Shown: positions 6,697 to 62,295 of the stretch, piece by piece
Position numbering within the stretch: position 1 is the stretch's first letter
Layout: each line of letters begins with the position of its first letter
NCBI GenBank assembly: GCA_032718475.1
Contig: JAUCBJ010008204.1
Span: 37,173-101,172, forward strand
Source: Nemertoderma westbladi
Lineage: Eukaryota > Animalia > Xenacoelomorpha
Reading direction: 5' to 3'
Length of the DNA stretch: 64,000 bases
Translations under genes and position numbers: made by a program
Notes under the pieces: model-generated
Databases searched by the model: none
What the model was told of the DNA's origin: nothing
The model's input: only the letters and a program-made list of their open reading frames with translations

Positions 6697-6997
6697 TTGC
6701 GGGCCTGCAGCAGTTTAGGTGCTCCATTGCAGCATTGGCAATTGACAGATTAAGCCTAGCCTTTAGTATTCCGCATTACAGCTCTGATTAGCAGCAACTA
6801 GCAGACAGACTGCAGGACTGAATGAATACTGCCAGACTGCACTACCGGTAGCGTAGCATATTGCATTGCTGTATTGTGGTATTGTTGGCGTTTGTCGTGT
6901 GTTGTTTTGCCGTACCGGTACACAGGTGACAGGGGCTGAAAACTAACTGACTAGCCCTAGCTGCTTAGCATACACCATAACGTCTGAACGTGTAGCT

Positions 6998-7636
6998 ATG
7001 CCTCCTAAGGACAAAGATCCAAAGGCGAAAGCCGCCAAACCTGCCGCCGCTGCGAAAGGGAAGAAAACCGATAAAGCGGAGAAGCCAGCGGCTGCCGCGG
7101 CCGAGCCGAAGAAACCGGTGACAAAGGGAAAGGCCGCGCCCGTGGAGAAAAAATCAGCGCCCTCGCGGAAAGGCGAAGGAAAAGACGCGAAAAATATCTC
7201 GAAACAAAAATCCAAAATCGATGCTGCAGTGAAATCGAAGAAGGCCGTGCAAAAGGGAGTTTTCCAGAAGAGCAAGCGGAAAGTGCGTACGTCAGTCCAC
7301 TTCCGTCGTCCCAAAACGTTGAAACAGAAACGGAACCCCAAGTACCCTCGTAGGAGTGTACCGTGGCGGAACCGGATGGACCAGTTCTCAATCATCCAAA
7401 GGCCTCTCAGTACCGAGAGCGCCATGAAGAAGATTGAGGACAACAACACCATCGTATTTATCGTCGACATAAAGGCGAATAAACAGCAGATTAAAATGGC
7501 GGTTAAGAAACTTTACGAGATTCAGGCGAGTAAAGTGAACACGTTGATAAAACCGGATGGAACGAAGAAGGCCTATGTTCGGTTGGCTTCGGATTACGAC
7601 GCACTTGATGTAGCCAATAAGATTGGGATCATATAA
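6998..7636 (+). CDS. RPL23A: 60S ribosomal protein L23a (uL23) with Lys/Ala/Pro-rich N-terminal extension, intronless CDS
   Basis: [14 protein letters not shown]...PKYPRRS...[22 protein letters not shown]...[23 protein letters not shown]. Confidence 0.97.
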
Positions 7637-12772: not shown

Positions 12773-15700
12773 TTAATTGAAAAAGACCCGAATTGGTGGA
12801 CAGTTTATGTCGTCACCAGCTCCGTCATCAGTATCCATGGTAACCTGTAAATCAGCGTAATTCTGATTGGATGCCAGTTTTATGAGACTCTTTAACTGTT
12901 TCTTCTTCCGCGCCGCGTGCGCCGGCATAAAATCCATGAAGACCATCTTAACGCCGTGGATAACGGAGGTCACCTCGAGGTTGGGTCGGCCAACCCGGGC
13001 CACAATCAGCTTCATAAACTCCTGCAGGGTGAGACTGGGCGACACCCCGAAGTCCCACCGGTCCCACATGGTGTACTCTATACCGGGCACGCACTCCTGT
13101 CGGGGCACTGCGCCCGGCTCAGACGAGATCACGATGGGCAACGCGAGGTTTATAAAGGTATTCCGGTACCTTCCGATATCATCCTCGGATAAACTTCTCT
13201 TAGCTAATTTAATTAGTTCTATGGTGACCAACCCCGCGACGCAGGCTGTTGTAGTAGCGATAGCGGGGACGATTCGACCGGCTATTCGTTTGGTCTGTAA
13301 GCGATCAGCCGGTTCAATCCCGTACATCGACGCGCGGAGATTCGATGCTGCCGTTATAAAATCGATGTGGCCGTTGGAGTCGTCGTCTTTCTCGAAGTCG
13401 ACGGGAAAAAGCGGTTTAACTGAAGGAGATTCTATTCCTTCTAGGTTTAATCGGACGTCGAATAAATCTTCCTCTTCCTCAACCGGGGCCGTTGCCGCTT
13501 CGTCGGTAACTACCGACTTACCGGAGGGTTCAAACTCCGGGACGGGGAATCCCTCGAGCGCGGCGAGGATAGCGGGTTTATCGAACGGAGCACCGCGGAG
13601 CCCGTAAACGTCGGCCCAGAGCCGAGCGAGACTCGCGACGAAGGCGAGATGGTCCGGGAGCTCGGGGTCGAAGCGGATCGGAGTGGGCGGCCGACGGGGG
13701 AGCGTCCAGAACGGAGTCCCGTCCGCCACCGCGCAGTCCAACGGGAAGCAGTGCAGCAGGTTCAAAGCCTTGTGGGTGAAGTACTTCTCGAATTTAATTC
13801 GGGCGAGTTTCACGCAGCCAACGAGGTCCGCGGGACGACGCGAGAGAAGTTTAATCGAATCGGAAAGCCCGTCCGGAGTCGGTTGATTCGAGCTGAGAGC
13901 GGAAAGTAAGCCGGAAGTCGACCAGTTGTAACTCGTCCAGAGTTTATTAAACGACGTAGGTTTCAGGACAAACGCGGATTCGAATTTATCGCGAGCCCAT
14001 TCTATAGTGTGGGTTACCGTGGAGGGGAAGGACTTGAGTGTGCAGTAGGGGATGGCGAGATCGGTGGAGGGGTCGTGTTGGCTCCCGTAGGACTCGGTAA
14101 GGAAGGGGACCACCGTCTGGACGTGGCCTTTAGTCCCGATCGTACCCGAGTCGAGGAGCGCCCGCTGGTTGGTGACGCAACGCGAGTCCACGTACCGCCT
14201 CGCCTCCACGTTATCCAACGCGTTCACGACCACGTCGAGGTCGGCGTAGAAGGCGTCCGGATAAACAACGACCTCCGTTTCCGGGCCCACGCGGTGCTGA
14301 TGGGCCGACACGTTGAGCTCCGGGTTGATCTGTTTGGCGACCGTCGCGGCAGTGCTGCTCTTGGGATGTCGGATGTGCTGCGAACGGAAGAGAAACTGTC
14401 GGTTTAAGTTACTTTTCTCGATGATATCGTTGTCGGTTATTGTTAAACGTCCGACGGTAGACAAACCGATATGCGCAAAGTTTTTAAGCAGTTCGCATCC
14501 GATGGCTCCGCAACCTACCATGAAGCTGTTAACGGAATGGAGTTGGTCCAGCGTCTGTTGTCCGACGCAACGACGCAAATCGCTGTACCTGTCCGGAGAG
14601 GCCGGAAGCGAGACTTCCGGAGGGGCGAGACAGAGAAACTCGCTGTAGAACAGCTGTCTCAAAGGGCTGAACTTCCCGGTCAATGATTTCAGGACCTCCT
14701 GAGCGACGAACCCCCCTAGACACGCCCCTAGCGGTTGGAGGAATCCGCTACTGGTAACGGCGAGACTGCGAAGTAGTCCGGAGTCCAACTGGGTCGGACG
14801 AGTTAGCGACGAGTTCGCGGACTCGCACAGAGCCAGGAACTCGTCCAACTCGCCAGACGAACTCGGCAACTCCCCGTGGAGCTCTGTGTAGCGGTCCAAC
14901 GCAAGGAAACCAACGTGCACGTTGATTGGTGCATCCGGGTTTAATAAATCTCCAATCAAAATCTCAGGATTAATTAATTGGTTATCTAAACTTGTGAAAC
15001 TAATTTTGATTGGTTGTTTAACTTTAATAAATACGCCTCCAGCGGTGTACTCAGGCATTGGTAAAGGAGCATCTACCTTAAAGGTGGACGGCGTTAATAC
15101 ATTGACAGTAAACTGCTTACCGTTCAATGACGTCACAACCTCGCGGAAGGTGATGACGTCACCGGTATCTAGACCGTGCAACCCGTCTGCGTGGGTGGTA
15201 ACCACCCCCTGGTTGTCTATAGAGGAAATAAACTTGGGTTCGATCTCTTCCCCATCGGCGTCGGAGACAAGGAATTCATCGCCCAAATCGACGAATATGG
15301 AACCGGCAAGGCCGTAAACCGAGGCGCATACGAGATGGATCGAGTTCTTACGACAGAACGAATCAACAGCGCGTTGCAGCGATAGAGACGAGTTGCAAAC
15401 CACCACGCAGGTGTAACCAGAAAGGATAAACAAGTTGTTTATCGTGAGGTTGCTATGGGAACAGCGTACGTCCACGTAGGGATTCAACTCGGCGAGTCTC
15501 GGAAGACAAGCCGAGTCCCTCGGTTTCCCGATGTCTTCCGGACGCACGTAGAACTGACTCCCTAGATCGGTTACGGAACACGGAGTCGCGTCGTCTATAG
15601 TGACCGATTTGACCCCGGCTAGGATTAGGTTCTTGGCGATCTCGACTCCGAGCCCGTTTACGGTGTGGAGGAACACGGAGGATCGAGCCATCCGATGCAT

Positions 15701-15787
15701 CGCGGAATCACCGAGGACGTAGCGTTGTCGGCTGTACAAACCGTCGTCTATACCCGAGACATCATCCCTGCTGTTTCCCGAGGCCAT
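12773..15787 (-). CDS. UBA6: Ubiquitin-like modifier-activating enzyme 6 (E1), intronless CDS
   Basis: 1004 aa; YSRQRYVLGD.AM, MVGCGAIGCELLKN, IEKSNLNRQFLFR, catalytic IPYCTLKSFP, FEKDDDSNGHIDFI. RQRY, GCGAIG and LKSFP match UBA6 rather than UBA1. Confidence 0.93.
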   Translation of the reverse strand: MASGNSRDDVSGIDDGLYSRQRYVLGDSAMHRMARSSVFLHTVNGLGVEIAKNLILAGVKSVTIDDATPCSVTDLGSQFYVRPEDIGKPRDSACLPRLAELNPYVDVRCSHSNLTINNLFILSGYTCVVVCNSSLSLQRAVDSFCRKNSIHLVCASVYGLAGSIFVDLGDEFLVSDADGEEIEPKFISSIDNQGVVTTHADGLHGLDTGDVITFREVVTSLNGKQFTVNVLTPSTFKVDAPLPMPEYTAGGVFIKVKQPIKISFTSLDNQLINPEILIGDLLNPDAPINVHVGFLALDRYTELHGELPSSSGELDEFLALCESANSSLTRPTQLDSGLLRSLAVTSSGFLQPLGACLGGFVAQEVLKSLTGKFSPLRQLFYSEFLCLAPPEVSLPASPDRYSDLRRCVGQQTLDQLHSVNSFMVGCGAIGCELLKNFAHIGLSTVGRLTITDNDIIEKSNLNRQFLFRSQHIRHPKSSTAATVAKQINPELNVSAHQHRVGPETEVVVYPDAFYADLDVVVNALDNVEARRYVDSRCVTNQRALLDSGTIGTKGHVQTVVPFLTESYGSQHDPSTDLAIPYCTLKSFPSTVTHTIEWARDKFESAFVLKPTSFNKLWTSYNWSTSGLLSALSSNQPTPDGLSDSIKLLSRRPADLVGCVKLARIKFEKYFTHKALNLLHCFPLDCAVADGTPFWTLPRRPPTPIRFDPELPDHLAFVASLARLWADVYGLRGAPFDKPAILAALEGFPVPEFEPSGKSVVTDEAATAPVEEEEDLFDVRLNLEGIESPSVKPLFPVDFEKDDDSNGHIDFITAASNLRASMYGIEPADRLQTKRIAGRIVPAIATTTACVAGLVTIELIKLAKRSLSEDDIGRYRNTFINLALPIVISSEPGAVPRQECVPGIEYTMWDRWDFGVSPSLTLQEFMKLIVARVGRPNLEVTSVIHGVKMVFMDFMPAHAARKKKQLKSLIKLASNQNYADLQVTMDTDDGAGDDINCPPIRVFFN

Positions 15788-15924
15788 GATCGGCTAGATT
15801 ATTCGTTGTGTTCTGTCGTTATTAGCTTTAACTTCGATGAAAAGTGGAGGCGCAAGAACTACGTTCATGAAAACAACATAAAAACTTTGGGCTTCCGGTA
15901 GACTTGTAGTTATGATTTGCTTTT

Positions 15925-20890: not shown

Positions 20891-21370
20891 TCACCGTCTC
20901 ATAGAAGGGAAGTCTACTATAGGCCGACCTGTAGAGTCCAGTGCAACCCGTTGTCCTGGTAATGGGGGGCCCGATAGTTTCCTAGGTAACTGAGTCGGTT
21001 GGTTTAGGTCCTCGAGCATTGTGAGCCATCGCTGCACCGTCGTCTGATGACGCTGAATCTGTAGGTTCTTCCGCTCCAATTCGATTCGAAGCTCCCCGTT
21101 ACCTTCTGTGGCGACGTGTTCCGGTAACTCTACTGCGAGGACCAGCCGTTTCTGCAGAAAGAAGGTCTCCAACTGGTGTCCGACGTCGAGGAATCGCGTC
21201 AGACATTGGTCCACGGTGTTTTGTATCTCGGTTTTGTCTATGAGGTTCACATGATCCTGATTCACCAGCGAAGAATAACACGCCTGGAACGCCGCTTCAA
21301 AGTCGTCCACTAGGTTGTTACCGGCAGGGATGGTTTGTTCAGCATTCTGACTTGTCGACTGACAATCCAT
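20891..21370 (-). CDS. MED28: Mediator complex subunit 28, intronless CDS
   Basis: LVDDFEAAFQACYSSLVNQD...VDQCLTRFLDVGHQLETFFLQKRL...ELRIELERK matches the Med28 family. Confidence 0.92.
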   Translation of the reverse strand: MDCQSTSQNAEQTIPAGNNLVDDFEAAFQACYSSLVNQDHVNLIDKTEIQNTVDQCLTRFLDVGHQLETFFLQKRLVLAVELPEHVATEGNGELRIELERKNLQIQRHQTTVQRWLTMLEDLNQPTQLPRKLSGPPLPGQRVALDSTGRPIVDFPSMRR

Positions 21371-22935
21371 TAGGCCTACAGCATTATATTATTGCGACAT
21401 ATCCTGATATCTCGATGACACGCTAACTGGCTAACTCGTCGGTGAGAAAACGATTACGGTACACGCAAGCGGGAAGGCTGCATGGGAGGCCTACCTAGTA
21501 CCTACTGGCCTATGCTATGCCTGTATGCAGATATGTTTTCATCAGCACAGCACGAGCACCAGAGTACAGTTTTTAGTCAATTAGTACTGTAGTAGCAATC
21601 CTGAATCCTACAGAACTGCACAGCTAGCGCTGGATACTGCAGTGCAGTACTGCCAGACTGGAATTGCTCCGAATTCTGGAATTTACCAGTTTACCGTACG
21701 CGGAAGATACGCCGCGTATTTTTGCAATTACAGAATTACGCGGAAGGCAGGAAGCTGGGAAGGCATGTATGAAAATACGCTCGATCGGCGTATTTTCCAG
21801 AATGTACGCGGAAGATACCCCTGTACCCTGATACCAGAAGATTTTAATTTTGTTTATTTTTATTTCACTTTACTACACCTGTACACTGGGTGCACTGTAC
21901 TGCTGTATGTACTACAGTACTACTGACAGCAGACTGAGGGAGCTATTGCAGTATCAGAGTATTGATAATGGGATTTGGCTGTCTGGTGTGTTAAGACCGT
22001 TTTGAGGGTTTGGGATTGGGAGTAATATGCAGTAGTACTTTGCAAACCCCATACGACGTCGGTATTATATATTTATATCGCATTAATTTTAATTTTCACT
22101 AAAACAATCGCCTTTTCCACTAAATTAAATGTTTTTTTGCTATACATTTTGGTCACTAAAATAAATGTATTCCTCCACTAAAATAATATTAATTATCACT
22201 ACAACTATAAATGTATTTTTCTAATCATATAACTGAAACCTGTTTAATTTTGAATTTTGTTTATTGTTTTTGTTATAATAACGTGCCACTCTCTATGTCA
22301 GCATTCTATGTAGTGATAATTAATAGATTTTAGTGATAAATAATATATTTAAGTGATAATTAATTTATTTACTGGAAACTGAATGATTTTATAGTGATTT
22401 AATGTTTAACATTAAGGTAAAGGAAGCATAAGCTTATTGTACCTGTTCAGATATTAAACTGAGGCTATGTATTTACCTACTACTGTACTGTACTACCCTA
22501 CAAATGTTGATATGAAGTATGTAAAATGAGAGGGTGGCGTAAGGTCAAACTTAACCTAACTGGCTAAAAATCATTTACAATACAGTAATTAAAATGTAAG
22601 TACAGGAAGTGCATCTAAAAACCGAGCTTGACACGAGTAATAAAATAGACGTTATAACAAATTTGGCTCACATTTTAATACATCTTAAAAACAATATGCA
22701 GTAAAACAGTATAGGCCCTACTGTAGCTGTGTATAAAAACTATTAAATTGTTTAAAAACGTCAAGTAAATAGGTTCAATCCAATTAAAAATACAGATAGT
22801 ATATTTAGTTATTATAATATAATATAAAATATTAATTTTATAAAGTAGTTGTTAAAACGTAAAGTTTGTGTATGAGAACAAAAGCGTGTATTGGAATGAT
22901 AATTGAATTGAAATTAATATATCATATCTCTCCAA

Positions 22936-22978
22936 ACCACGTACGCGTTTCGACCTTACTGGGTCTCATCAGCGTGGT
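22936..22978 (-). ncRNA. Minimal type I hammerhead ribozyme, copy 1
   Basis: Minus strand: ACCACG-CUGAUGA-GACC(CAGUAA)GGUC-GAAA-CGCG-UA-CGUGGU. Intact core, 6-bp stem I, 4-bp stem II, palindromic stem III (ACGCGU), GUA cleavage triplet with the A at 22942. Confidence 0.88.
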
Positions 22979-23295
22979 GTCGGATTTGAACCTGGGACCA
23001 ATATGAGATATTAATTTCAATAAAAATTACGCGATTCCTAAATTTGTACACTACCCGGTTAAAAAGTACGCATGTGATGGGATTAGTCCTACAATTGCGC
23101 CAATAAAAGATAAGTTATTTTCGGTAAATTAAACTTATCATTCGAGGCTAAGACCCCAAGATCCCTTCCTATAATAAATGTATAATAACAAACACCTCAA
23201 AAACACAGCTTGCCAACACATTGTTACTATCCATAATAAAAATCAGGGGCTAATAAAATGGCAGCTGACTTTGAAATTAATACTCCATATCTCAA

Positions 23296-23356
23296 GAACC
23301 TGTGGCCTAGTGGTTGTAGTCGGCTTCCACCTCGTGGTCCCAGGTTCAAATCCGAC
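23296..23356 (+). promoter_or_regulatory. tRNA-like Pol III type 2 internal promoter directly 5' of hammerhead copy 2
   Basis: A-box TGGCCTAGTGG (23303-23313) and B-box GGTTCAAATCC (23343-23353). Confidence 0.75.
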
Positions 23357-23399
23357 ACCACGCTGATGAGACCCAGTAAGGTTGAAACGCGTATGTGGT
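23357..23399 (+). ncRNA. Minimal type I hammerhead ribozyme, copy 2
   Basis: ACCACG-CUGAUGA-GACC(CAGUAA)GGUU-GAAA-CGCG-UA-UGUGGU. Differs from copy 1 by two C>T changes at CpG sites, each leaving a G-U wobble pair. Confidence 0.82.
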
Positions 23400-23599
23400 T
23401 TGGAGAGATATGAGATATTAATTTCAATAAAAATTACGCGATTCCTAAATTTGTACACTACCCGGTTAAAAAGTACGCATAAGTTATTATCGGTAAAATA
23501 AACTTATCATTCGAGATTAAGACCCCTAGATCCCCTCGTGCTATATTTGGGTGAGCCAAGTCCCAATGAGCTACAGGACGTTGACCCCCACTTTTCAAT

Positions 23600-24549
23600 C
23601 TCAGTCTGTATTCGGCTTCGCGTTCGAATTTGGACATGTCTCTATCAAAGTAGTATCGTATGCTGCCAGCCTCGAATTATTTGCCCGATAGTATTTGGTT
23701 AGCCATGGCGCAAGTGTCGAAAGAGAGGAGCAGTGGTCGGTTTGATGAGTCTTCTCGCGGTTTCCCCAATCGGGAGATTGTCTTATATGGTAGTTTCTCG
23801 TTGAGATAATCAAAGAGCAAATTACTGTCTACTTCTCGCTGTTTGTTGGAAGAATTGTTTCCATTGTCACCAGGAAAGTTTCGAATAACAATGTTATATT
23901 TGCGTTGGTCGTTTAAGTCGGATTATCTTCTCGATACTCACTGAGTCAATTGGTTTAGCAGCACATTTCTGCTCAATATAGTGTCATGGATATACTTGAG
24001 TTTTCTGGCGTTTTTCTTTACAATTTCGACCCAACATCCACCATCCTCCTCATTTACCAATTGAGGGGGTGGAGTCGTTTCTATGGTTACAATTTTAGAT
24101 CGGACTTCACCCTGCGCCACCTCTACATCGCTTAGTCGTACTTCAATCTCATGGCGAAGTGAGGCTAAGTCGTTGCCAAGGATGATTTTATTATCGTCGC
24201 CATCTGACTCAGTTAGAGCACGGAGTTTGTCTAGTTGTAGAATTTCTTCCTCGAGTGCAGTGATCCGTACTGCCGAACAGAAACCACATATACATTTTTT
24301 GGATAAGAAATTGTTTTGTCCAGAAGGTATGGTACTTTCCGTCAACACTGTTGTGCATGCAGAACATTCAACACTTGTGCGCACAAATTTATTGGAGGAT
24401 GCGACTGGTGTGAGTTTGGATTTGCCGTTTTTGGGTGTGACGGTGACGGGGTTGCGTTTCTCACCTACAGATAGCCGTATAATAAATTGTTGTATCGCCT
24501 GGTTTACTCGTCCCAGTTGTGATTGGTTGAGAGTTTGCTCATCATGCAA
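23600..24549 (-). mobile_element. Degenerate LINE ORF1-like sequence
   Basis: 203-aa ORF with CxxC...CxxC and a coiled-coil-like stretch, followed out of frame by QRKYNIVIRNFPGD, resembling the R..NI.I...P motif of CR1/L2/Jockey ORF1p. Confidence 0.55.
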
Positions 24550-24701
24550 TCGTTTATGTTATACAGGGAGTAAGTAGATATAGAGCCCTGCTATACAATA
24601 TTACTGTTGTAAGATTTCCAGTTTGATCAGCTGTATATTGTCCAGTTGTCTTAGGTAAACTCTTCCTCTTGTGCCCCTACAGCACAGCCCTATAAAAAAA
24701 T

Positions 24702-25409
24702 GGTAAAACGAACTTAGATCCTGCAAGGCCTGACTTTGATGAACTTAGATCTTTCCGAACTTAGGTCTATCTATCTGGGCGAACTTAGATCATAACTAGG
24801 TGAACTTAGATCCTAACTAGGTGAACTTAGATCCCAATTTATGCTATTAAAAGCCTTTTGGTAATCATCTCCTAGTCGCGAAGCGAACTTAAATCCCACG
24901 TTGAAAGCAAAGCGAACTTAGATATTAGGTGGACTTATAGATCCAAATTTATGCAAATTCCTTGGCACACGCTAGAGGAGAAGCGAACTTAGATCCCACT
25001 GTCATACTACTGTCATACACATCAAAGTAGTTGCGATCAGTGAATCACCAACAAACTATAATTTGCTAATTAATAGCTAATTCATTGCAATCTATTGGGG
25101 GTGGGATCTAAGTTCGCTTCCCTTCAAGCGTGATAATATTTACATTACAGTAAGGTCTGCTGGCCTACAGTATGGGAATGACATTTCACATTAACACAGC
25201 TACGGTACAGCAATGTATGCAATATATGCGAGATCTAAGTTTCGTACATGTTGAGGATCTAAGTTCGTATGGGAAGGATCTAAGTTCGTATGGGAAGGAT
25301 CTAAGTTCGTATGGTAAGGATCTATGTTCGTCTGGTAAGGATCTATGTTCACCCAAGATCTAAGTTCGTTCAGGATCTAAGGTGCTCTAGGATCTAAAGC
25401 CGAGGAACC
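24702..25409. mobile_element. Non-autonomous TIR element with 9-bp TSD (Merlin- or MULE-like)
   Basis: GGT...ACC termini; perfect TSD TAAAAAAAT (24693-24701, 25410-25418); many GAACTTAGATC repeats on the left arm and GATCTAAGTTC repeats on the right arm. Confidence 0.75.
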
Positions 25410-33370: not shown

Positions 33371-34908
33371 ATATTGAAATAAATTGAAATATATTGAAAT
33401 AAATTGAAATATATTGAAATAAATTGAAATAAATTGAAATATATTGAAATATATTGAAATAAATTGAAATAAATTGAAATATATTGAAATATATTGAAAT
33501 AAATTGAAATATATTGAAATATATTGAAATATATTGAAATAAATTGAAATAATATATTGAAATAAATTGAAATATATTGAAATAAATTGAAATATATTGA
33601 AATAAATTGAAATAAATTGAAATATATTGAAATATATTGAAATAAATTGAAATATATTGAAATAAATTGAAATAAATTGAAATATATTGAAATATATTGA
33701 AATAAATTGAAATAAATTGAAATATATTGAAATATATTGAAATAAATTGAAATATATTGAAATATATTGAAATATATTGAAATAAATTGAAATAATATAT
33801 TGAAATAAATTGAAATATATTGAAATAAATTGAAATATATTGAAATAAATTGAAATAAATTGAAATATATTGAAATAAATTGAAATAAATTGAAATATAT
33901 TGAAATAAATTGAAATAAATTGAAATATATTGAAATAAATTGAAATAAATTGAAATAAATTGAAATATATTGAAATATATTGAAATAAATTGAAATAAAT
34001 TGAAATATATTGAAATATATTGAAATAAATTGAAATAAATTGAAATATATTGAAATATATTGAAATAAATTGAAATATATTGAAATATATTGAAATATAT
34101 TGAAATAAATTGAAATATATTGAAATATATTGAAATATATTGAAATAAATTGAAATAATATATTGAAATAAATTGAAATATATTGAAATAAATTGAAATA
34201 TATTGAAATAAATTGAAATAAATTGAAATATATTGAAATATATTGAAATATATTGAAATAAATTGAAATATATTGAAATAAATTGAAATATATTGAAATA
34301 AATTGAAATATATTGAAATAAATTGAAATAAATTGAAATATATTGAAATAAATTGAAATAAATTGAAATATATTGAAATAAATTGAAATATATTGAAATA
34401 AATTGAAATAAATTGAAATATATTGAAATATATTGAAATAAATTGAAATAAATTGAAATATATTGAAATATATTGAAATAAATTGAAATATATTGAAATA
34501 TATTGAAATATATTGAAATAAATTGAAATAATATATTGAAATAAATTGAAATATATTGAAATAAATTGAAATATATTGAAATAAATTGAAATAAATTGAA
34601 ATATATTGAAATATATTGAAATATATTGAAATAAATTGAAATATATTGAAATAAATTGAAATATATTGAAATAAATTGAAATATATTGAAATAAATTGAA
34701 ATATATTGAAATAAATTGAAATATATTGAAATAAATTGAAATATATTGAAATAAATTGAAATATATTGAAATAAATTGAAATATATTGAAATAAATTGAA
34801 ATATATTGAAATAAATTGAAATATATTGAAATAAATTGAAATATATTGAAATAAATTGAAATATATTGAAATAAATTGAAATAAATTGAAATATATTGAA
34901 ATAAATTG
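33371..34908. repeat. 10-bp satellite (ATTGAAATAW)n, ~150 copies
   Basis: Two variants ATATTGAAAT and AAATTGAAAT, interspersed. Confidence 0.97.
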
Positions 34909-35355
34909 TATTATATTGCAATATTATTGTAACATAAATATTGCAATATATAATTCAAGATGAAATCAGCTGTTTACAGCCCGTCATCAGTTACCTAGGC
35001 AACCAGAGTGAAAAAATCGAAATCTCAGCTTTGGATACTGCTACGTGCAGGCCCATAGAGGCAATATGGGTACCCCTGGGGTAACAGTGTAATGCCATGG
35101 ATGTGTATGTCTGTATCGTATGTCTACAGCCATAAAGGCTAAGACAGCAAAGCAAGGAAGGCTAGTAGTAGCAAGGCCATCATAATACGGCCTTATTACA
35201 GCATATTACGATGAGTATTACGATGGTGTTGGTACTACACCATCGTGTTGGTACCTACACTTCAGTACTAGAAAGATTGCCTTGGCACTCTGGTTGCCTA
35301 GGTAACAACTGATTTGATTTGATGAAACAGCTGATTTCATCTTGAATTATATATT

Positions 35356-44247: not shown

Positions 44248-45561
44248 CAAGTCCCTAAAAGGTGCCACCCTGCTCCATAGCGCGGGAAATTCAAATGATT
44301 GAAAGACATGTTATTTGTACTGGAAAGGGTGGCAGATCAGATCTGCCACCTATATATTGGCGGTAAATTCAAATCTGTTTTAACATTGAATACATGAATA
44401 GAGTAAGACCAATCTGCCAATGTCAGAATGTAATTCATTGAATCAGAATAAATTATTTATTATCGGTTTAACTCACTCATCCGTTAATGTTGTTGATTTA
44501 TCTATTCTGGGACTTCGAGCAGCACGTGAACAATTAAACCAGCACGCTAACTACCGCTAGTCTGGGGCTTCGAGCACCACGTGAACAACTAAACTGGCTG
44601 GTTACCTAGTCTGGGACTTCGAGCAGCACGTGAACATTTAAACCAGCACGCTAACTATAGGTTGTCTGGGGCTTCGAGCACCACGTGAACAACTAAACCA
44701 GCACGTTAACTAGTCTAGGACTTCGAGCAGCACGTGAAAAACTAAGCTGGCTGGTTAACTAGTCTGGGATTTCGAGCAGCACGTGTACAACTAAGCTGCC
44801 TGGTTAACAAGTCTGGGACTTCGAGCAGCACCTAAACAACTAAGCTGACTGGTTAACTATTTTTATAGTCTGGTACATGTCTGGAACAGATATAGCAGTA
44901 TAGGCAGAAGCATTATACACCTATTGTTATTACAGTAGGCTTACCTGCGATATATTTTACTATCAGTTCCCTGCTATATTGTTATAATTATAATGTTCTG
45001 ATGTAATTATAACTGATACAAGCAAATAATATATGTTCTTAACATTTTACTGATAGAAGTTAAGCTAAACTACTAATCTACTTTAGTTGGTCAGGTGCTG
45101 CTCGAAGTCCCAGACTAGTTAACCAATCAGCTTAGTTATTCACGTGCTGCTCGAAGTCCCAGGCTAGTGAACCAATCAGATTAGTTGTTCACGTGCTGCC
45201 CGAAGTCCCAGACTAGTTAACCGGTCATCTTAGTTGTTCACGTGCTGCTCGAAGCCCCAGATTATTTAACCAGTCAGCTTAGTTGTTTACGTGCTGCTCG
45301 AAGCCCCAGAATAGATAAAACAACAACAATAACTGATGAGTGAGTTAAACCGATATGAAACAAGTTATTCTGATTCAATGAATTACATTTTATTATTTAG
45401 TCTTACCCTATTGATGTATTCAATGTTAAAACAGATTTTAATTTACCGCCAAAATGTAGGTGGCAGATCTAATCTTCCACCCTTTTCAGTACAAATTACA
45501 TGTCTTTCAATCATTTGAATTTCCCGCGCTATGGAGCATGGTGGCACCTTTTAGCGACTTG
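44248..45561. mobile_element. Foldback-like element with internal ~49-bp tandem arrays
   Basis: ~260-bp outer inverted arms (CAAGTCCCTAAAAGGTGCCACC / GGTGGCACCTTTTAGCGACTTG), then ~7 forward and ~5 reverse copies of CTGGGACTTCGAGCAGCACGTGAACAACTAAG... Confidence 0.85.
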
Positions 45562-46584
45562 TGTCATTGTATCCCTTAGACCAGTAGACGCAGGATTCCT
45601 CCGGATACCGTGCACGGCTGTAAGGTGTACCGGTACGTCAGTACGTATGCACATCGGCTGATAGACAATCTGACAATCTGTTACCGGTAGGCTTACAGGC
45701 TTCTGGCAGTCTGGGCTTAGGCTTACCAGCGATACTCCATGTATGACATGACGAGGTAAAGTAGGCCTACAGCTGTACAGAAGTAGCCTACAGACAAACA
45801 GAACTGCAGAAGAAGGCCTATGCCTAATTCTGTAATTACTGAATTACCGTACCGGCTAACTGGCTGACCGGTACTGAACTAACGGTATTCCATTTTCAAA
45901 TAGAGTTCTACAGTACTACCGGCTGAGCGGTCACCGGTACACTACTCTACTGTACAGTAAACATGCAGACATGCGCAATGCACAGCAGCACAGGTAGGCC
46001 TATCAGCATATATCATTCCAACTCCAATACTTTACTATTACTACTCCACTCCTGCACTCCACTCCATCCATACTCAGAACTCAGGTACCGTACCTGTAGT
46101 GCTGTAGTCAGGCTGTCAGGCAGTCAGGCTGAAAACTGGAAATATCCACCACCACTACCAGACTACCTACTGCATAGGACCTACTGCTGTACTGACCTAT
46201 CCCTGTATCCTACTGTCCAAGCTGCCTAGCCTAGGCCTAAAACCAAATTATTTTACGTTTATCTATCGCAATCGCAAACAACTGCAAATAACATCATCAT
46301 ACCTGCATTCTGCATACAGGCTGACTGGTACCGGTACCTTCTGAACTGACCCAGAACTGATACAGATAACTACATCACGATCACACCATCGTACTAAACT
46401 GCAGAACTGAAACTCAACATATAACTGTATACCGGAACAGGAATACGACTACAACAACTAACACCAATACCAATACAAACTTTATTGACAATATTGTCAC
46501 GTCCATCACATAACATTAAACAACCAAGCAGCAAAGCAGCATATCTCTGTATTAACAAAGTCGGCGAGGCAGTTTAAATACAAG

Positions 46585-48231
46585 ATGGGTAGCGAACCAA
46601 GACCTCGACAAGGGATGGGCGATTTAGTCGATATCCCCCCCTTCAGTAGAGTTTTTGTTAACTGTTCCCGTGAATGCAAGGAGGAACAAATTCGCGCGGC
46701 TTTCTCTCCATGTGGGAACATCATGGACATATGGACCCCCAAAGACAAGGTGACAAAGGAACCTAAAGGAATAGTTTATGTCAAATATGAAAAAGCCTCT
46801 CAGGCTGCGAAGGCCGTTGAAGAACTTAATGGTAAAAATATAGAAGGCTCATCGAAACCACTAAAAGTTGTAATAGCTCAAAGTAAATCTTCTAAATCAA
46901 AAGAGCAGTTCAATGAAGCAGAAAGAATGACCAGGCTGTTTATAATGATACCCAGAGATTTGTCGGAAAGTGATTTAGAGAAATCATTTTCCCAATTTGG
47001 GCAAGTGGAGAGTATTCAGATAGTAAAGGACAGGGCTACACAGAAAAGCAAAGGTTTTGGGTTCGTGAAATTCGACAAGGCATCTGAAGCTGCCGTGGCA
47101 ATGGAAGAATGCCATATGTCGTTTAAGGCGCGGTTCGCTGAGCCTAAAGGAACCAAAGTTGTTGGGAAGGACGTTCCAGACGTGCCTAGACCATTCTTCG
47201 ATGGAGGGTTCAGTCAACAACGGATGATCCCCCAAGACCAGCCAATAATGCAGAACCAAACCCTATACGTTGTGTGCAGCAACCACTCAACTCAGGATCA
47301 ACTGACACGTTTATTCGATTTGGTACCGGGATTCGTATCCCTGGTTCTACGAAGTAAATCCGATGGCGACGGAAAGACGAGATCCTTCGCTTACGTCCAG
47401 TACGATAACTACGCGGCAGCGATCTACGCCAAAGAGAAACTCAATATGTTCGAGTTTCCAACCGGTTCTAAATTAATCGTTAGATTTGCCGAGAACGTTA
47501 ACAATTGGGCAGCCAACACCATGCAATCACCTAGCAACCAGTACGATGCAGCAGCCTACGGTAATCCGGCTGGTTACTCCCAGGGGCAAAAGCGTATGGG
47601 GGAGCAACCAGTTAGCAGCGGGGGGTTTGGTGGAGGGTTTCAGCAGAGCTACCCGCCTGCTGACCCTTCGACCTCAGCAATGCAGGCAGAGTTGAGCAGT
47701 CTAAGAGATCAAGTCTCTCAGTTAGTTAACACTTTGAGTGTTAATAGTAGCAACTCTGTTGGCAGTGGCAATAATAGCCAGTGGGGTGCTGCTAGTCAGC
47801 CGTCGTACTCGCAGGAGCAGTACAGTGGCTCTGGTAGCGGATGGCAAGGCCCTTACAGAGGCGCAGACGACTCCCCTATGCTATACGGTATGGATTTGGG
47901 TCCACGACAGAAATTGGCTCTACTTTCGTCGGAATCCGAAGAACGTCTGTTCGTTTCCTTCCATCCCGCCGCGCCGGCTCAATCGGTTCTCGAAGATATC
48001 TTCTGTCGTTTCGGTAACCTCATTGCGGTTAGTATAATGAGAGGAAAGAATTGCGGCTACATTCAGTTTGCTTCAAAGGAGTCGGCAGTTAATGCTGTGG
48101 GTATGTTAAACGGGAAAAACCTTTGTGGTGTTCAGTATAAAGTTATTGTAGCGGATCCGCCTTCCGCAGGTAGAAAGAGGATGCGAGTTGATGGTGAAGA
48201 TAACGGAATGGAAAACCACTCCTACAGATAA
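46585..48231 (+). CDS. RBM45: RNA-binding protein 45 paralog A (4 RRMs), intronless, nested antisense in a MANBA intron
   Basis: PPFSRVFV, KGIVYVKYEKASQA, KVVIAQS, TRLFIMIP, RLFDLVPG, YAKEKLNMFEFPTG, HOA-like ELSSLRDQVSQLVNTL, ERLFV...LEDIFCRFGNLI. Confidence 0.92.
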   Translation: MGSEPRPRQGMGDLVDIPPFSRVFVNCSRECKEEQIRAAFSPCGNIMDIWTPKDKVTKEPKGIVYVKYEKASQAAKAVEELNGKNIEGSSKPLKVVIAQSKSSKSKEQFNEAERMTRLFIMIPRDLSESDLEKSFSQFGQVESIQIVKDRATQKSKGFGFVKFDKASEAAVAMEECHMSFKARFAEPKGTKVVGKDVPDVPRPFFDGGFSQQRMIPQDQPIMQNQTLYVVCSNHSTQDQLTRLFDLVPGFVSLVLRSKSDGDGKTRSFAYVQYDNYAAAIYAKEKLNMFEFPTGSKLIVRFAENVNNWAANTMQSPSNQYDAAAYGNPAGYSQGQKRMGEQPVSSGGFGGGFQQSYPPADPSTSAMQAELSSLRDQVSQLVNTLSVNSSNSVGSGNNSQWGAASQPSYSQEQYSGSGSGWQGPYRGADDSPMLYGMDLGPRQKLALLSSESEERLFVSFHPAAPAQSVLEDIFCRFGNLIAVSIMRGKNCGYIQFASKESAVNAVGMLNGKNLCGVQYKVIVADPPSAGRKRMRVDGEDNGMENHSYR

Positions 48232-49047: not shown

Positions 49048-50115
49048 GTCAACTGAGCTCCCACTTTCAGTACCGATTTATACCAACTGAGCTCCCCCTT
49101 TCAGTACCGATTTATACCAACTGAGCTCCCCCTTTCAGTACTGATTTATACCAACTGAGCTCCCCCTTTCAGTACTGATTTATACCAACTGAGCTCCCCC
49201 TTTCAGTACTGATTTATACCAACTGAGCTCCCCCTTTCAGTACCGATTTATACCAACTGAGCTCCCCCTTTCAGTACCGATTTATACCAACTGAGCTCCC
49301 CCTTTCAGTACCGATTTATACCAACTGAGCTCCCCCTTTCAGTACTGATTTATACCAACTGAGCTCCCCCTTTCAGTACCGATTTATACCAACTGAGCTC
49401 CCCCTTTCAGTACCGATTTATACCAACTGAGCTCCCCCTTTCAGTACTGATTTATACCAACTGAGCTCCCCCTTTCAGTACTGATTTATACCAACTGAGC
49501 TCCCCCTTTCAGTACTGATTTATACCAACTGAGCTCCCCCTTTCAGTACCGATTTATACCAACTGAGCTCCCCCTTTCAGTACCGATTTATACCAACTGA
49601 GCTCCCCCTTTCAGTACTGATTTATACCAACTGAGCTCCCCCTTTCAGTACCGATTTATACCAACTGAGCTCCCCCTTTCAGTACCGATTTATACCAACT
49701 GAGCTCCCCCTTTCAGTACTGATTTATACCAACTGAGCTCCCCCTTTCAGTACTGATTTATACCAACTGAGCTCCCCCTTTCAGTACCGATTTATAACAA
49801 CTAAGCTCCCCCTTTCATTACCGATTTATACCAACTGAGCTCCCCCTTTCAGTACCGATTTATACCAACTGAGCTCCCCCTTTCAGTACCGATTTATAAC
49901 AACTAAGCTCCCCCTTTCATTACCGATTTATACCAACTGAGCTCCCCCTTTCAGTACCGATTTATACCAACTGATCTCCCCCTTTCAGTACCGATTTATA
50001 CCAACTGAGCTCCCCCTTTCAGTACCGATTTATAACAACTGAGCTCCCCCTTTCATTACCGATTTATACCAACTGAGCTCCCCCTTTCAGTACCGATTTA
50101 TACCAACTGAGCTCC
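49048..50115. repeat. 34-bp satellite, ~31 copies, followed by a 120-bp-period duplication to ~50311
   Basis: (CCAACTGAGCTCCCCCTTTCAGTACYGATTTATA)n; each unit contains the inverted pair ACTGA...TCAGT. Confidence 0.97.
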
Positions 50116-55864: not shown

Positions 55865-56453
55865 CTGAAAGTATAAAATTCAACGTTTAGTAAGAGTAGA
55901 GCAGAAATACAAATAGTACTAGGCCTAGGCTTATAATATAATTGGATATCTCTGCCTGTCTAATCCTTCAACCATCCCTCTGCTGGCCCATGCCGCCATG
56001 TGAGTATTACAGTTTACCGGACTTTTCTGCTGTTTTATTTCCCTTTGCAGTTTAGCCTACCCTCATTGCTCATGCAGTCATGTGAGGAATACCAAGGCTA
56101 GGTAGGTACAGAAAAAGAGCTGAAAATAACCAAAACATTAGTTACGAATTAATGTAAAGTAAAGTAAATTTTCTTCGGCCATTAGGCCAACGAATTATAT
56201 AATATGTAATAATGCCTGAATGCTGTATTATTATAGGCCTAATAATATATTTCTATATTTAACTAGGCCTACTGTCTTTGGTCTTGTCAGAAGACAGCAC
56301 CAACACTCGAACACTGCTGTATAACTTAAATCACTTTTACAAACACTCCGTCTTGCAGTACTACACTACTGCAGGTAGAACACTAACACGGTAACTGCTG
56401 AACTGTAGGCTACTGCATGATATCTGGATAGACAATTTGTTAATAAATGTGTA

Positions 56454-58115
56454 ATGGAACCCGAGCAAAGACGTCCATCCAACCATGTGGACATCCCCCC
56501 GTTCAGTAGAGTCTTTGTTACCTGTTCCCGCGATTGCAAGGAGGAACAGATTCGTGCGGCTTTCTCTCCTTACGGGAGCATCACCGACATATGGATACCG
56601 AAAGATAAAGTAACTAAGGAACCAAAAGGAATCGTTTATGTTAAATATGAGAAAGCTTCTCAGGCCGCTAAATCTTTAGAAGAGTTGAGCGGTAAAACCA
56701 TCGAAGGTTCTAGTAAACCAGTTAAAGTAACGATCGCCCAAAGTAAATCCTCTAAGTCAACAGAACAATTTAACGAATCGGAAAGAATGACTCGATTATT
56801 TGTGATGGTTCCTAAGGAAACCTCAATAGAGGATTTAGAAAGCAGTTTCTCTCAATTTGGCGATATAGAAAATGCCAAGATGATAAAAGATCGCGTTACA
56901 AAGAAGAACAAAGGTTGCGCATTCGTGAAATTTTATAAAGCATCTCAGGCTGCTCGGGCAATGGAAGAGTGCAATAGTAGTTACAAGGCAGTTTTTGCCG
57001 AACCTCAGGTCAGTAAATGGGCTAAAGACCTCCAGGACATATCGAAACCCTTCTTCGACAACGGTTTCTATCAGCAACCGTTAATGATACCAGACCAGTT
57101 ACATAACTCAGGATTAAACACTAGACTCTATGTGGTGTGCAGCAATAAATCAACTCAGGATCAACTGACACGTTTATTCGATTTGGTACCGGGATTCGTA
57201 TCCCTGGTTCTACGAAGTAAATCCGATGGCGACGGAAAGACGAGATCCTTCGCTTACGTCCAGTACGATAACTACGCGGCCGCGATCTACGCCAAAGAGA
57301 AACTCAATATGTTCGAGTTTCCAACCGGTTTCAGGTTGACCGTAAAGTTTGCCGAGGATAGGGATGGACAATGGGGCGGTGGGGGGCAGCTAAGGACTGA
57401 TGGCGCCGCGTACAGCGGGGGCTACCACTACGGGGGGGCAGATAGGGGTTTCGTGGGGGCAGATAGGGCTTACGGGGGTACAGATAATGGTTACGGGGAT
57501 GCGTACAGGGCTTACAGCGGGGCAGATACGGGGCATGGGGGATCAGATAGGGGGCACAGGGGGACAGGCAGGGGTTACGGGGGCTCCGCAGGGCAGGGCA
57601 CCTTGGACATGCATACTGAACTTAACAGTCTAAGGGATCAGGTTTCCCATCTAGTAAACACCCTTGGAGCTGCGAATCTCGGTAACAACGGTATGGGAGT
57701 AGGGGGCTCGCAGGGTCCCCGAGGAGCTGGTTACTCCCAGTACGGCTACTCCCAACCTCCTTACAGAGCCGCAGACGACTCCCCTATGCTATACGGTATG
57801 GATTTGGGTCCACGACAGAAATTGGCTCTACTTTCGTCGGAATCCGAAGAACGTCTGTTCGTTTCTTTCCATCCCGCCGCGCCGGCTCAATCAGTTCTCG
57901 AAGATATATTCTGTCGTTTCGGTAACCTCATTGCGGTTAGTATAATGAGAGGAAAGAATTGCGGCTACATTCAGTTTGCTTCAAAGGAGTCTGCAGTTAA
58001 TGCTGTGGCTATGTTAAACGGGAAAAACCTCTGTGGTGTTCAGTATAAAGTTATTGTAGCGGATCCGCCTTCAGAAGCTAGAAAGAGGATAAAAGCGACT
58101 GACTCCAATGTATAA
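56454..58115 (+). CDS. RBM45: RNA-binding protein 45 paralog B, intronless
   Basis: Same 4-RRM architecture as 46585-48231, with a different Gly/Tyr/Arg-rich linker. Confidence 0.92.
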   Translation: MEPEQRRPSNHVDIPPFSRVFVTCSRDCKEEQIRAAFSPYGSITDIWIPKDKVTKEPKGIVYVKYEKASQAAKSLEELSGKTIEGSSKPVKVTIAQSKSSKSTEQFNESERMTRLFVMVPKETSIEDLESSFSQFGDIENAKMIKDRVTKKNKGCAFVKFYKASQAARAMEECNSSYKAVFAEPQVSKWAKDLQDISKPFFDNGFYQQPLMIPDQLHNSGLNTRLYVVCSNKSTQDQLTRLFDLVPGFVSLVLRSKSDGDGKTRSFAYVQYDNYAAAIYAKEKLNMFEFPTGFRLTVKFAEDRDGQWGGGGQLRTDGAAYSGGYHYGGADRGFVGADRAYGGTDNGYGDAYRAYSGADTGHGGSDRGHRGTGRGYGGSAGQGTLDMHTELNSLRDQVSHLVNTLGAANLGNNGMGVGGSQGPRGAGYSQYGYSQPPYRAADDSPMLYGMDLGPRQKLALLSSESEERLFVSFHPAAPAQSVLEDIFCRFGNLIAVSIMRGKNCGYIQFASKESAVNAVAMLNGKNLCGVQYKVIVADPPSEARKRIKATDSNV

Positions 58116-59621: not shown

Positions 59622-62295
59622 AACCACAAGCACTCGCGTTGGAACCACAAGCACTCGCGTAGGAACCACAAGCACTCGCGTTGGAACCACAAGCACTCGC
59701 GTTGGAACCACAAGCACTCGCGTTGGAACCACAAGCACTCGCGTAGGAACCACAAGCACTCGCGTTGGAACCACAAGCACTCGCGTAGGAACCACAAGCA
59801 CTCGCGTAGGAACCACAAGCACTCGCGAAGGAACCACAAGCACTCGCGTAGGAACCACAAGCACTCGCGTAGGAACCACAAGCACTCGCGTAGGAACCAC
59901 AAGCACTCGCGTAGGAACCACAAGCACTCGCGTAGGAACCACAAGCACTCGCGTAGGAACCACAAGCACTCGCGTAGGAACCACAAGCACTCGCGTAGGA
60001 ACCACAAGCACTCGCGTAGGAACCACAAGCACTCGCGTAGGAACCACAAGCACTCGCGTAGGAACCACAAGCACTCGCGTAGGAACCACAAGCACTCGCG
60101 TAGGAACCACAAGCACTCGCGTAGGAACCACAAGCACTCGCGTAGGAACCACAAGCACTCGCGTAGGAACCACAAGCACTCGCGTAGGAACCACAAGCAC
60201 TCGCGTAGGAACCACAAGCACTCGCGTAGGAACCACAGCACTTGCGTAGGAACCACAAGCACTCGCGTAGGAACCACAGCACTTGCGTAGGAACCACAAG
60301 CACTCGTGTAGGAACCACAAGCACTCGCGTAGGAACCACAAGCACTCGCGTAGGAACCACAGCACTTGCGTAGGAACCACAAGCACTCGCGTAGGAACCA
60401 CAAGCACTCGCGTAGGAACCACAGCACTTGCGTAGGAACCACAAGCATTCGCGTAGAAACCACAAGCACTCGCGTAGGAACCACAAGCACTCGCGTAGGA
60501 ACCACAAGCACTCGCGTAGGAACCACAAGCACTCGCGCTGGAACCACAAGCACTCGCGCTGGAACCACAAGCACTCGCGTAGGAACCACAGCACTCGCGT
60601 AGGAACCACAAGCACTTGCGTAGGAACCACAAGCACTCGCGTTGGAACCACAAGCACTCGTGTAGGAACCACAAGCACTCGCGTAGAAACCACAAGCACT
60701 CGCGTAGAAACCACAAGCACTCGCGTAGAAACCACAAGCACTCGCGTAGGAACCACAAGCACTCGCGTAGAAACCACAAGCACTCGCGTAGAAACCACAA
60801 GCACTCGCGTAGGAACCACAAGCACTCGCGTAGGAACCACAGCACTCGCGTAGGAACCACAAGCACTCGCGTAGAAACCACAAGCACTCGCGTAGAAACC
60901 ACAAGCACTCGCGTAGAAACCACAAGCACTCGCGTAGAAACCACAAGCACTCGCGTAGAAACCACAAGCACTCGCGTAGGAACCACAAGCACTCGCGTAG
61001 GAACCACAGCACTTGCGTAGTAACCAGAAGCACTCACATAAGAACCACAAGCACTCGCGTAGGAACCACAAGCACTCGCGTAGGAAACACAAGCACTCAC
61101 GTAGGAACCACAAGCACTCGCGTAGGAACCACAAGCACTCGCGTAGAATCCACAAGCACTCGCGTAGAAACCACAGCACTTGCGTAGTAACCAGAAGCAC
61201 TCGCGTAGGAACCACAAGCACTCGTGTAGGAAACACAAGCACTCGTGTAGGAACCACAGCACTTGCGTAGTAACCAGAAGCACTCGCATAAGAACCACAA
61301 GCACTCGCGTAGGAACCACAAGCACTCTCGTAGAAATTACAAGCACCCACGTAGGAACCACAAGCACTCATGTAGGAACCACAGCACTCGCGTAGGAACC
61401 ACAAGCACTCGCGTAGGAACCACAAGCACTCATGTAGGAACCACAGCACTCGCGTAGTAACCAGAAGCACTCGCATAAGAACCACAAGCACTCGCGTAGG
61501 AACCACAAGCACTCGCGTAGAAATTACAAGCACTCACGTAGGAACCACAAGCACTCATGTAGGAACCACAGCACTCGCGTAGGAACCACAAGCACTCGCG
61601 TAGGAACCACAAGCACTCGTGTAGGAACCACAAGCACTCACGTAGGAACCACAAGCACTCGCGTAGAAACCACAAGCACTCACGTAAGAATCACTAGCAC
61701 TCACGTAGGAACCACAGGAACTCGCGTAGGAACCACTAGCACTCACGTAGGAACCACAGGAACTCGCGTAGGAACCACTAGCACTCACGTAGGAACCACA
61801 AGCACTCGCGTAGGAACCACAAGCACTCGCGTAGGAACCACAAGCACTCGCGTAGAAACCACAAGCACTCACGTAAGAATCACTAGCACTCACGTAGGAA
61901 CCACAGGAACTCGCGTAGGAACCACTAGCACTCACGTAGGAACCACAGGAACTCGCGTAGGAACCACAGCACTCGCGTAGGAACCACAAGCACTCGCGTA
62001 GGAACCACAAGCACTCGTGTAGGAACCACAAGCACTCACGTAGGAACCACAAGCACTCGCGTAGAAACCACAAGCACTCACGTAAGAATCACTAGCACTC
62101 ACGTAGGAACCACAGGAACTCGCGTAGGAACCAATAGCACTCACGTAGGAACCACAGGAACTCGCGTAGGAACCACTAGCACTCACGTAGGAACCACAAG
62201 CACTCGCGTAGGAACCACAAGCACTCACGTAGGAACCACAAGCACTCGTGTAGGAACCACAAGCACTCACGTAGGAACCACAGGAACTCACGTAG
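59622..62295. repeat. 21-bp satellite (GGAACCACAAGCACTCGCGTA)n, ~125 copies
   Basis: Homogeneous at the left end, with variant units and higher-order blocks to the right. Confidence 0.97.

Follow-up and report, generated by a model that had tools for sequence, protein, structure and literature searches.

A 411-nt repeat family joining a tRNA-like head to a hammerhead ribozyme: a probable Sm-alpha-type retrozyme with Penelope-type insertion marks

The locus, its hammerheads and its tRNA-like head

The stretch of DNA analysed here (64 kb, referred to as the window) holds the following features between positions 22907 and 23537.

22907..23000, minus strand: inverted, 5'-truncated copy with B box, hammerhead, and 35 nt beyond the predicted cut; no A box
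22931..22984, minus strand: hammerhead copy 1, type I, with a basal G-C pair in both stem II and stem I; Rfam HH9
23001..23407, plus strand: one complete period in the circularly permuted order of body, head, and ribozyme; its length is 407 bp, against 411 in the family majority
23118..23121, plus strand: T4 run that may act as a Pol III stop and lies in the paired part of a predicted hairpin; none of the listed family variants falls within it
23181..23240, plus strand: A+C-rich stretch (80% A+C in 23181-23220), followed by a cluster of copy ends
23271..23293, plus strand: 5' arm of a 23-bp inverted repeat, 87% complementary to 23405-23427 and paired in linear and circular folds
23296..23353, plus strand: tRNA-like head (A box 23303-23313, B box 23343-23353), ending directly after the B box
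23351..23404, plus strand: hammerhead copy 2, type I, with stem I of 6 bp and a 5-bp extension, stem II of 4 bp, and palindromic stem III
23405..23427, plus strand: 3' arm of the 23-bp inverted repeat, partner of 23271-23293
23408..23537, plus strand: where the second period sets in, with 73 bp that match 23001-23073 perfectly and, beyond a 38-nt gap, 59 bp at 90%

The 407-bp period proposed in the initial annotation was recovered, with 100% identity of 23001-23073 and 23408-23480 at a spacing of 407; after the 38-nt gap follows a second direct-repeat block, in which 23110-23168 resembles 23479-23537 (90%). On the plus strand, the order of the full period is body (23001-23293), head (approximately 23296-23353), and ribozyme (23351-23404). 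The segment 22907-23000 is an inverted copy of 23335-23428 at 97% identity, with three differences in 94 positions (22952, 22941, and 22921). As assembled, both outer ends of the locus are 3' ends of the element, and the two arms meet 5' to 5' at 23000/23001. The locus comprises 1.3 units plus the inverted copy, and nowhere do two successive units on the same strand each carry a complete ribozyme. Because its single full promoter has only one ribozyme downstream, the copy at the locus cannot free a monomer itself. Of the monomer of approximately 400 nt that had been proposed, the unit stood, at approximately 410 nt and closing head to tail, while its release from this copy's own promoter did not.

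The unit has no coding capacity, an ATG within the core reaching a stop at codon 16, and LTR, PBS, and PPT are absent (PBS and PPT judged by eye). The 23-bp inverted repeat closes head and ribozyme into one domain, with a fold z-score of −3.9 and none of 200 shuffles as good. A structured circular fold of the unit was also predicted (z −2.5; 1 of 100 shuffles as good).

Both hammerhead cores claimed for the locus were located, with CTGATGA at 23363 (plus strand) and 22972 (minus strand), and in both copies the layout was as described: a stem II of 4 bp with a 6-nt loop, GAAA, CGCG, TA, and a stem I of 6 bp. Stem I of the plus copy is formed by 23357-23362 and 23394-23399, and its predicted cut lies 3' of 23393; the minus copy spans 22978-22936. 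A hammerhead descriptor (core, stem II, U-H, and no fewer than 5 bp in stem I) matched these two full motifs and no others in the 64-kb window, and at least one hammerhead-shaped motif arose in 1 of 150 windows simulated with an order-1 Markov model. Since both hammerheads are copies of one sequence, they do not represent two independent chance events. HH9 was the best-matching Rfam family for both, with 28.8 bits (E 5.4e-5) for the minus copy (22921-22988) and 19.2 bits (E 0.065) for the plus copy (23347-23414), yet both scores are below the gathering score of 52; a scan of the whole 64-kb window at the Rfam gathering score returned no matches. Elsewhere in the window, core-like motifs at 29304, 38562, 45333, and 52958 failed the stem test and were rejected as hammerheads.

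The initial annotation had called the ribozyme a minimal hammerhead of the type found in Penelope-like elements (PLEs). Its helices of 6, 4, and 2 bp instead place it in the canonical metazoan type, described by Cervera and de la Pena (2014, PMC4209133) as having a helix I of 6 bp, a helix II of 4 bp, and a short palindromic helix III. The PLE min-HHR is described in the same paper with a helix II of 7-8 bp, a helix I of 4-5 bp, and an extra unpaired base before stem II; the min-HHR class was rejected for this ribozyme because its helix lengths do not fit that definition.

Five further pairs lengthen stem I of the hammerhead and reach into the B box. Monomeric ribozyme folds were no better than those of shuffled sequences (z −0.3 and −0.6). 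For a homodimer of copy 1, the MFE structure was a double-hammerhead fold (−42.7 kcal/mol), as it was for the mixed dimer of copies 1 and 2, and for the copy 2 homodimer the double hammerhead lay 1.2 kcal/mol above the MFE. Both differences between the arms that fall within the ribozyme preserve pairing. From these fold models, self-cleavage is predicted to take place as paired (double) hammerheads. Copy 2 contains G-U pairs at 23370/23383, at the base of stem II, and at 23362/23394. As the former takes the place of the G10.1-C11.1 pair, described as highly conserved in hammerheads (PMC4209133), its cleavage may be weak. For frog retrozyme dimers, a 2026 preprint reports that eight of nine did not cut in vitro (bioRxiv 10.64898/2026.07.22.740005).

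The A and B boxes of the head form the sole such pair in the 64-kb window, where 0.075 pairs per simulated window were expected; the A/B-box consensus of Pol III promoters was used both for this search and for the call of a full B box. As had been observed earlier, the plus-copy ribozyme abuts the B box, its stem I beginning on the fourth base past it. An anticodon-like loop at 23324-23330 contains TCC and was read by eye as Gly-like. The family majority has G at 23348 (more than 99.9% of depth), which makes a full consensus B box; it further differs in the head by A at 23335 and by two extra bases after 23319, and by eye it forms a better anticodon-like arm round the TCC loop. ARAGORN called no tRNA in the head, whose predicted fold is a rod and not a cloverleaf. 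The T4 run at 23118, the only one on the sense strand of the unit, sits between both cut sites and could stop Pol III. Depletion of T4 runs in the unit, as a sign of Pol III transcription, was not significant (1 seen versus 1.58 expected, P = 0.51). On the strength of its box motifs, the head is predicted to direct Pol III transcription.

The neighbourhood of the element includes, directly to its right, a broken minus-strand frame (23540-24558) with a Cys-rich motif and a coiled-coil-like stretch, which we take to resemble a CR1/L2 ORF1. This frame stops where the element begins, is not followed by an ORF2, and has no Pfam match. At 24690-25400, two arrays of a 21-bp unit face each other as inverted arms in a foldback- or MITE-like arrangement, and a 49-bp unit forms two arrays at 44498-45318, which seem to run in opposite directions and lie beside the hammerhead-like core at 45333. 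Long tandem arrays occupy 33373-34923 (10 bp x 154), 49050-50115 (34 bp x 31), and 59622-62295 (21 bp x 128). Apparently intron-free host genes, among them RPL23A and MED28, were found at 12773-15793, 46489-48231, 56421-58115, 6947-7636, and 20891-21388; TMEM120 is split into exons. Other intron-free frames presumably correspond to a ubiquitin-activating-enzyme-like protein (1006 aa) and two similar RRM proteins.

The family in public DNA runs

Contigs of public assemblies were aligned to one period of the element. Three DNA runs (X1-X3), of which X2 and X3 derive from one sample and X1 from another, yielded matches in 1196 of 1,581,921 contigs (X1), 2931 of 8,938,268 contigs (X2), and 1606 of 2,536,511 contigs (X3); one of these runs may be the source of the window. 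In X1-X3, 63-70% of the matching contigs were at least 95% identical to the unit. Summed depth was 2.8e4-8.3e5 in the 29 full bins covering body, head, and ribozyme, and reached hundreds of thousands across most of these parts, as compared to approximately 2-340 per single listed contig. On a rough reading the family has hundreds to thousands of copies, the summed depth itself being no copy number. The many contigs in three DNA runs bear out the proposal of a multi-copy element, and with it that of a non-coding unit of approximately 410 nt in which an intact promoter motif is combined with an intact hammerhead; the lack of further copies, which the initial annotation had named as counting against its proposal, is thereby contradicted. 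The element belongs to a young, abundant, non-coding repeat family.

The copy in the window differs from the family majority at approximately nine places and by three small gaps (approximately 3%). The 12 variable places listed all lie outside the ribozyme (23349-23407); since approximately two would be expected there and this edge is thinly covered, the lack of ribozyme variants says little about constraint. No T>C change is listed at 23383, so the family as a whole seems to carry the G-U pair at the base of stem II.

In a further run (X4), which carries another organism label and is taken for RNA by guess, one 441-nt contig reads 23150>23407>23001>23179, corresponding to a 411-nt ring plus a 30-nt assembly overlap. 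This contig fixes the unit length at 411 nt and demonstrates head-to-tail closure; an RNA circle and collapsed tandem DNA fit it equally. Diverged head-to-tail joints (23386>23003 and 23400>23001) were present in X1 and X3, and several listed contigs hold dispersed copies, in which 110-190 nt of body are flanked by other DNA.

A family-specific pattern gave no matches in GTDB genomes. A pattern of B box plus hammerhead matched 2 viral and 18 metagenome loci in collections poor in animal contigs; none of these 20 belongs to the family and, judged by eye from the 60 upstream bases, none couples an A box to a well-formed ribozyme. Several of these loci (L004, L006, L010, L012, and L013/L017) are AT-rich metagenome contigs with short-stem-III hammerheads, unrelated to the 411-nt family and likely PLE relics; in L004 and L012 the hammerheads occur as opposite-strand pairs.

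Insertion marks and proposed mobility

A typical PLE insertion has been described as an inverted 5'-truncated copy beside a partial tandem (PMC8557442), and close hammerhead pairs on opposite strands have been reported as PLE relics (PMC4209133). The locus, as assembled, shows this pattern, a partial tandem with an adjoining inverted 5'-truncated copy. A further inversion joint, 23090/23320 in X1 and X3, was among the joints shown (15 of 34). Flanked pieces mostly terminate at 23145-23239 and none does so at the cut site (26 of 5956 pieces shown). Among the 18 of 587 loose-end rows shown, copy ends cluster at 23215-23239, and the loose ends past 23231 (X1, X2) and 23237 (X3) run into long, unlike, AT-rich continuations with an agreement of 0.48-0.49. 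The copy ends shown lie 150-250 nt beyond the cut site, behind the A+C-rich stretch.

For an anole PLE, Frangieh et al. (PMC11167929) place the start of reverse transcription within the RNA, at an AC-rich stem-loop downstream of the hammerhead, and report uncut RNA as the main substrate and ribozyme mutants that still insert, cutting being dispensable for insertion in vitro. By its place in the anatomy, the A+C-rich stretch at 23181-23240 is a candidate region for the start of reverse transcription. The locus has no target duplication, its flanks sharing no word longer than 5 nt, and no poly-A tail was seen. Among the 72 frames scanned, out of 82 listed for the window, none matched the RT or GIY-YIG families of Pfam; as no PLE frame was found in the window, it is the anatomy only that points to a PLE partner. 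On that ground, a Penelope-type enzyme is the likely pasting agent.

The locus holds a copy, slightly decayed, of an abundant non-coding family that is probably a non-autonomous retrozyme of Sm-alpha type, for which Pol III transcription and double-hammerhead cutting are predicted and which was likely pasted by a PLE enzyme. Anatomy, abundance, head-to-tail closure, and lack of a coding frame enter this reading as observations, from which we infer the polymerase, the cleavage, the circle, and the partner. In the proposed cycle, the upstream head of a source locus of at least two units would drive transcription across the next unit, and the two ribozymes would pair via their palindromic stem III and then cut. 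Cutting would free a 411-nt monomer with the promoter close to its 3' end, possibly ligated into a circle. The RT of a PLE would start at an internal site of this RNA, 150-250 nt downstream of the ribozyme, and proceed back across ribozyme and head, which would yield 5'-truncated copies, partial tandems, and inverted pairs. Copies exceeding one unit would regenerate the promoter together with a downstream unit.

Placed together, the inverted and direct arms read as an unbroken sense template and overlap by 21 nt. At position 23348 of the B box, the two heads have A, a variant held by less than 0.1% of family depth, and this shared rarity hints at one template copied twice. Such double copying, e.g. 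of a circle, would account both for the variant and for the identity of the first 73 bp; a recently homogenised tandem source predicts the same two features. In the last 59 bp, three positions that hold private letters in the first period show the family majority instead, an indication of a second template, and the three differences in 94 positions between the arms count against a clean single-template account. A bolder version of the retrozyme reading, which we consider conceivable but rather doubtful, is a viroid-like, self-promoting retroelement in which a Pol III RNA would give rise, via double hammerheads, to a 411-nt circle that a Penelope enzyme would copy repeatedly and, at a single break, from both DNA ends. 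On this view the locus would be a fossil of the process, and the element would have arisen independently, from a different tRNA. If true, this would bring Sm-alpha SINEs, retrozymes, and PLEs together in a single cycle open to test.

It appears unlikely that an autonomous PLE with a tRNA-type promoter has the unit as its terminal repeat (pLTR), most copies then being truncated pLTR pieces. In favour of this reading are the same insertion anatomy and two of the six X1 loose ends shown (behind 23157 and before 23282), each of which runs into a single consistent continuation and could branch into a longer element; in X2, record 16 begins at 23293 behind other DNA. However, both at the locus and in the X4 ring, the sequence past the ribozyme returns to the pre-head sequence, which leaves no room for a frame. 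The stop at codon 16 after the core ATG and the deep coverage of all loop bins in the three DNA runs also argue against a longer element. The branches at 23157 and 23282 (X1) and 23293 (X2) may mark a sister family or an autonomous partner that shares the head, the ribozyme, and the first 150 nt of the body.

Twin priming gives overlapping inverted and direct arms, and the 21-nt overlap on a continuous template would fit it. The element could accordingly be seen as a tRNA-derived SINE or satellite moved by a LINE (target-primed, with a twin-priming inversion) or spread through DNA recombination, its hammerhead being carried along without function. The window is rich in LINE-like fragments, with a CR1/L2-like ORF1 fragment adjoining the right end of the element, and the G-U pair in stem II would suit a ribozyme out of use. 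This explanation is nevertheless improbable: insertions do not begin with the promoter, among the listed copies the order is permuted and the ends fall within the body, and the locus has neither tail nor target duplication. Moreover, the ribozyme core is intact in both copies and no family variant is listed within it.

It is very hard to credit that the 157-bp block of head and ribozyme is a DNA-level (MITE-like) mobile cassette bounded by the 23-bp inverted repeat: although the inverted arm stops, at its outer side, just where the repeat does (23427/8) and one contig each of X1 and X2 has a joint, 23274>23023, that omits almost exactly this block, the body is covered equally or more deeply, none of the 18 loose ends shown lies at the outer edges of the repeat, and in the RNA fold the repeat simply prolongs ribozyme stem I. 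The joint 23274>23023 resembles a jump across the base of a hairpin.

Relation to known elements

The Sm-alpha-type retrozyme reading takes its name from a design described in PMC6765202, in which a Pol III promoter is followed by a hammerhead in tandem units; as the promoter stands at the 3' end of the cut monomer, tandem units are needed. The accounts of Sm-alpha and Sj-alpha of Schistosoma (PMC6765202, PMC8490949, PMC2770079) share with the present family a Pol III promoter of tRNA origin, a canonical type I hammerhead behind it, and very many copies. Correspondingly, the ribozyme of the family, itself of canonical type I, is immediately preceded by A and B boxes, and the family has a high copy number and head-to-tail units. 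Both units measure a few hundred bases, 335 bp as given for Sm-alpha and 411 nt here. The head is Gly-like by eye, whereas the schistosome elements are described as Gln- and Pro-derived, and the 411-nt unit differs from Sm-alpha in the 23-bp inverted repeat round head and ribozyme and in the G-U pair of stem II. A PLE-type inverted insertion is present here, whereas the available accounts of Sm-alpha contain no such report, the two being compared by description and not by sequence. Among the best 120 of 2890 relatives of the RPL23A in the window, none was from a schistosome; by this comparison the host is an animal to which no named species stands near.

Metazoan non-LTR retrozymes, as described in PMC7229834, PMC7761336, and bioRxiv 10.64898/2026.07.22.740005, resemble the family in their low-GC, non-coding tandem units of 150-450 bp and their canonical type I hammerhead. 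According to a 2020 review they seem to hold no promoter, in contrast to the clear A/B-box head found here; the available text of the 2026 preprint (bioRxiv 10.64898/2026.07.22.740005) makes no mention of tRNA, Pol III, or a promoter. Circular RNA is reported as demonstrated for published retrozymes, whereas for the 411-nt unit it is predicted. Mobilisation of animal retrozymes by PLEs has already been proposed (PMC7761336; bioRxiv 10.64898/2026.07.22.740005).

With PLEs and their non-autonomous derivatives, as portrayed in PMC8557442, PMC11167929, and PMC4209133, the family shares the partial tandem with an inverted 5'-truncated copy, 3' ends past the hammerhead, and AT-rich flanks. It departs from the published PLE descriptions in that the 411-nt unit has no RT/GIY-YIG frame, a canonical hammerhead instead of a min-HHR, and a tRNA-type head; the copy ends shown did not define a tail, in PLEs the distance of 30-40 bp between two RT start sites. 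TRIMp3 elements (Cassandra, Helenus, and Ajax) likewise have a Pol III promoter inside the repeated unit, which each copy regains, but are described as LTR-type elements with PBS, PPT, and target duplications of 4-5 bp and as having no ribozyme, whereas the locus lacks a target duplication (PMC10886601). The anatomy of a classical LINE-mobilised tRNA SINE was considered for the locus and rejected, given the permuted order, the missing tail, and flanks with no shared word longer than 5 nt. Full-text literature searches, judged mostly by title and start of abstract and with subscription journals and Repbase outside their scope, listed no tRNA-headed hammerhead element with PLE-type insertions outside schistosomes.

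The design of promoter plus hammerhead is already known from Sm-alpha, and the 411-nt family alone establishes no new mechanism. Its occurrence suggests that this design is not peculiar to blood flukes. On the transcription of animal retrozymes, the 2020 review states that promoters are lacking, and on the enzyme that pastes them, the PLE-retrozyme link as published rests on co-occurrence and pLTR similarity. Young and abundant, and combining a tRNA-type promoter, an intact ribozyme, and PLE-type marks, the family offers a compact substrate for testing promoter, cleavage, circularisation, and start of reverse transcription. It is a further example of the Sm-alpha-type design, and its PLE-type footprint and its promoter open the retrozyme cycle to testing.
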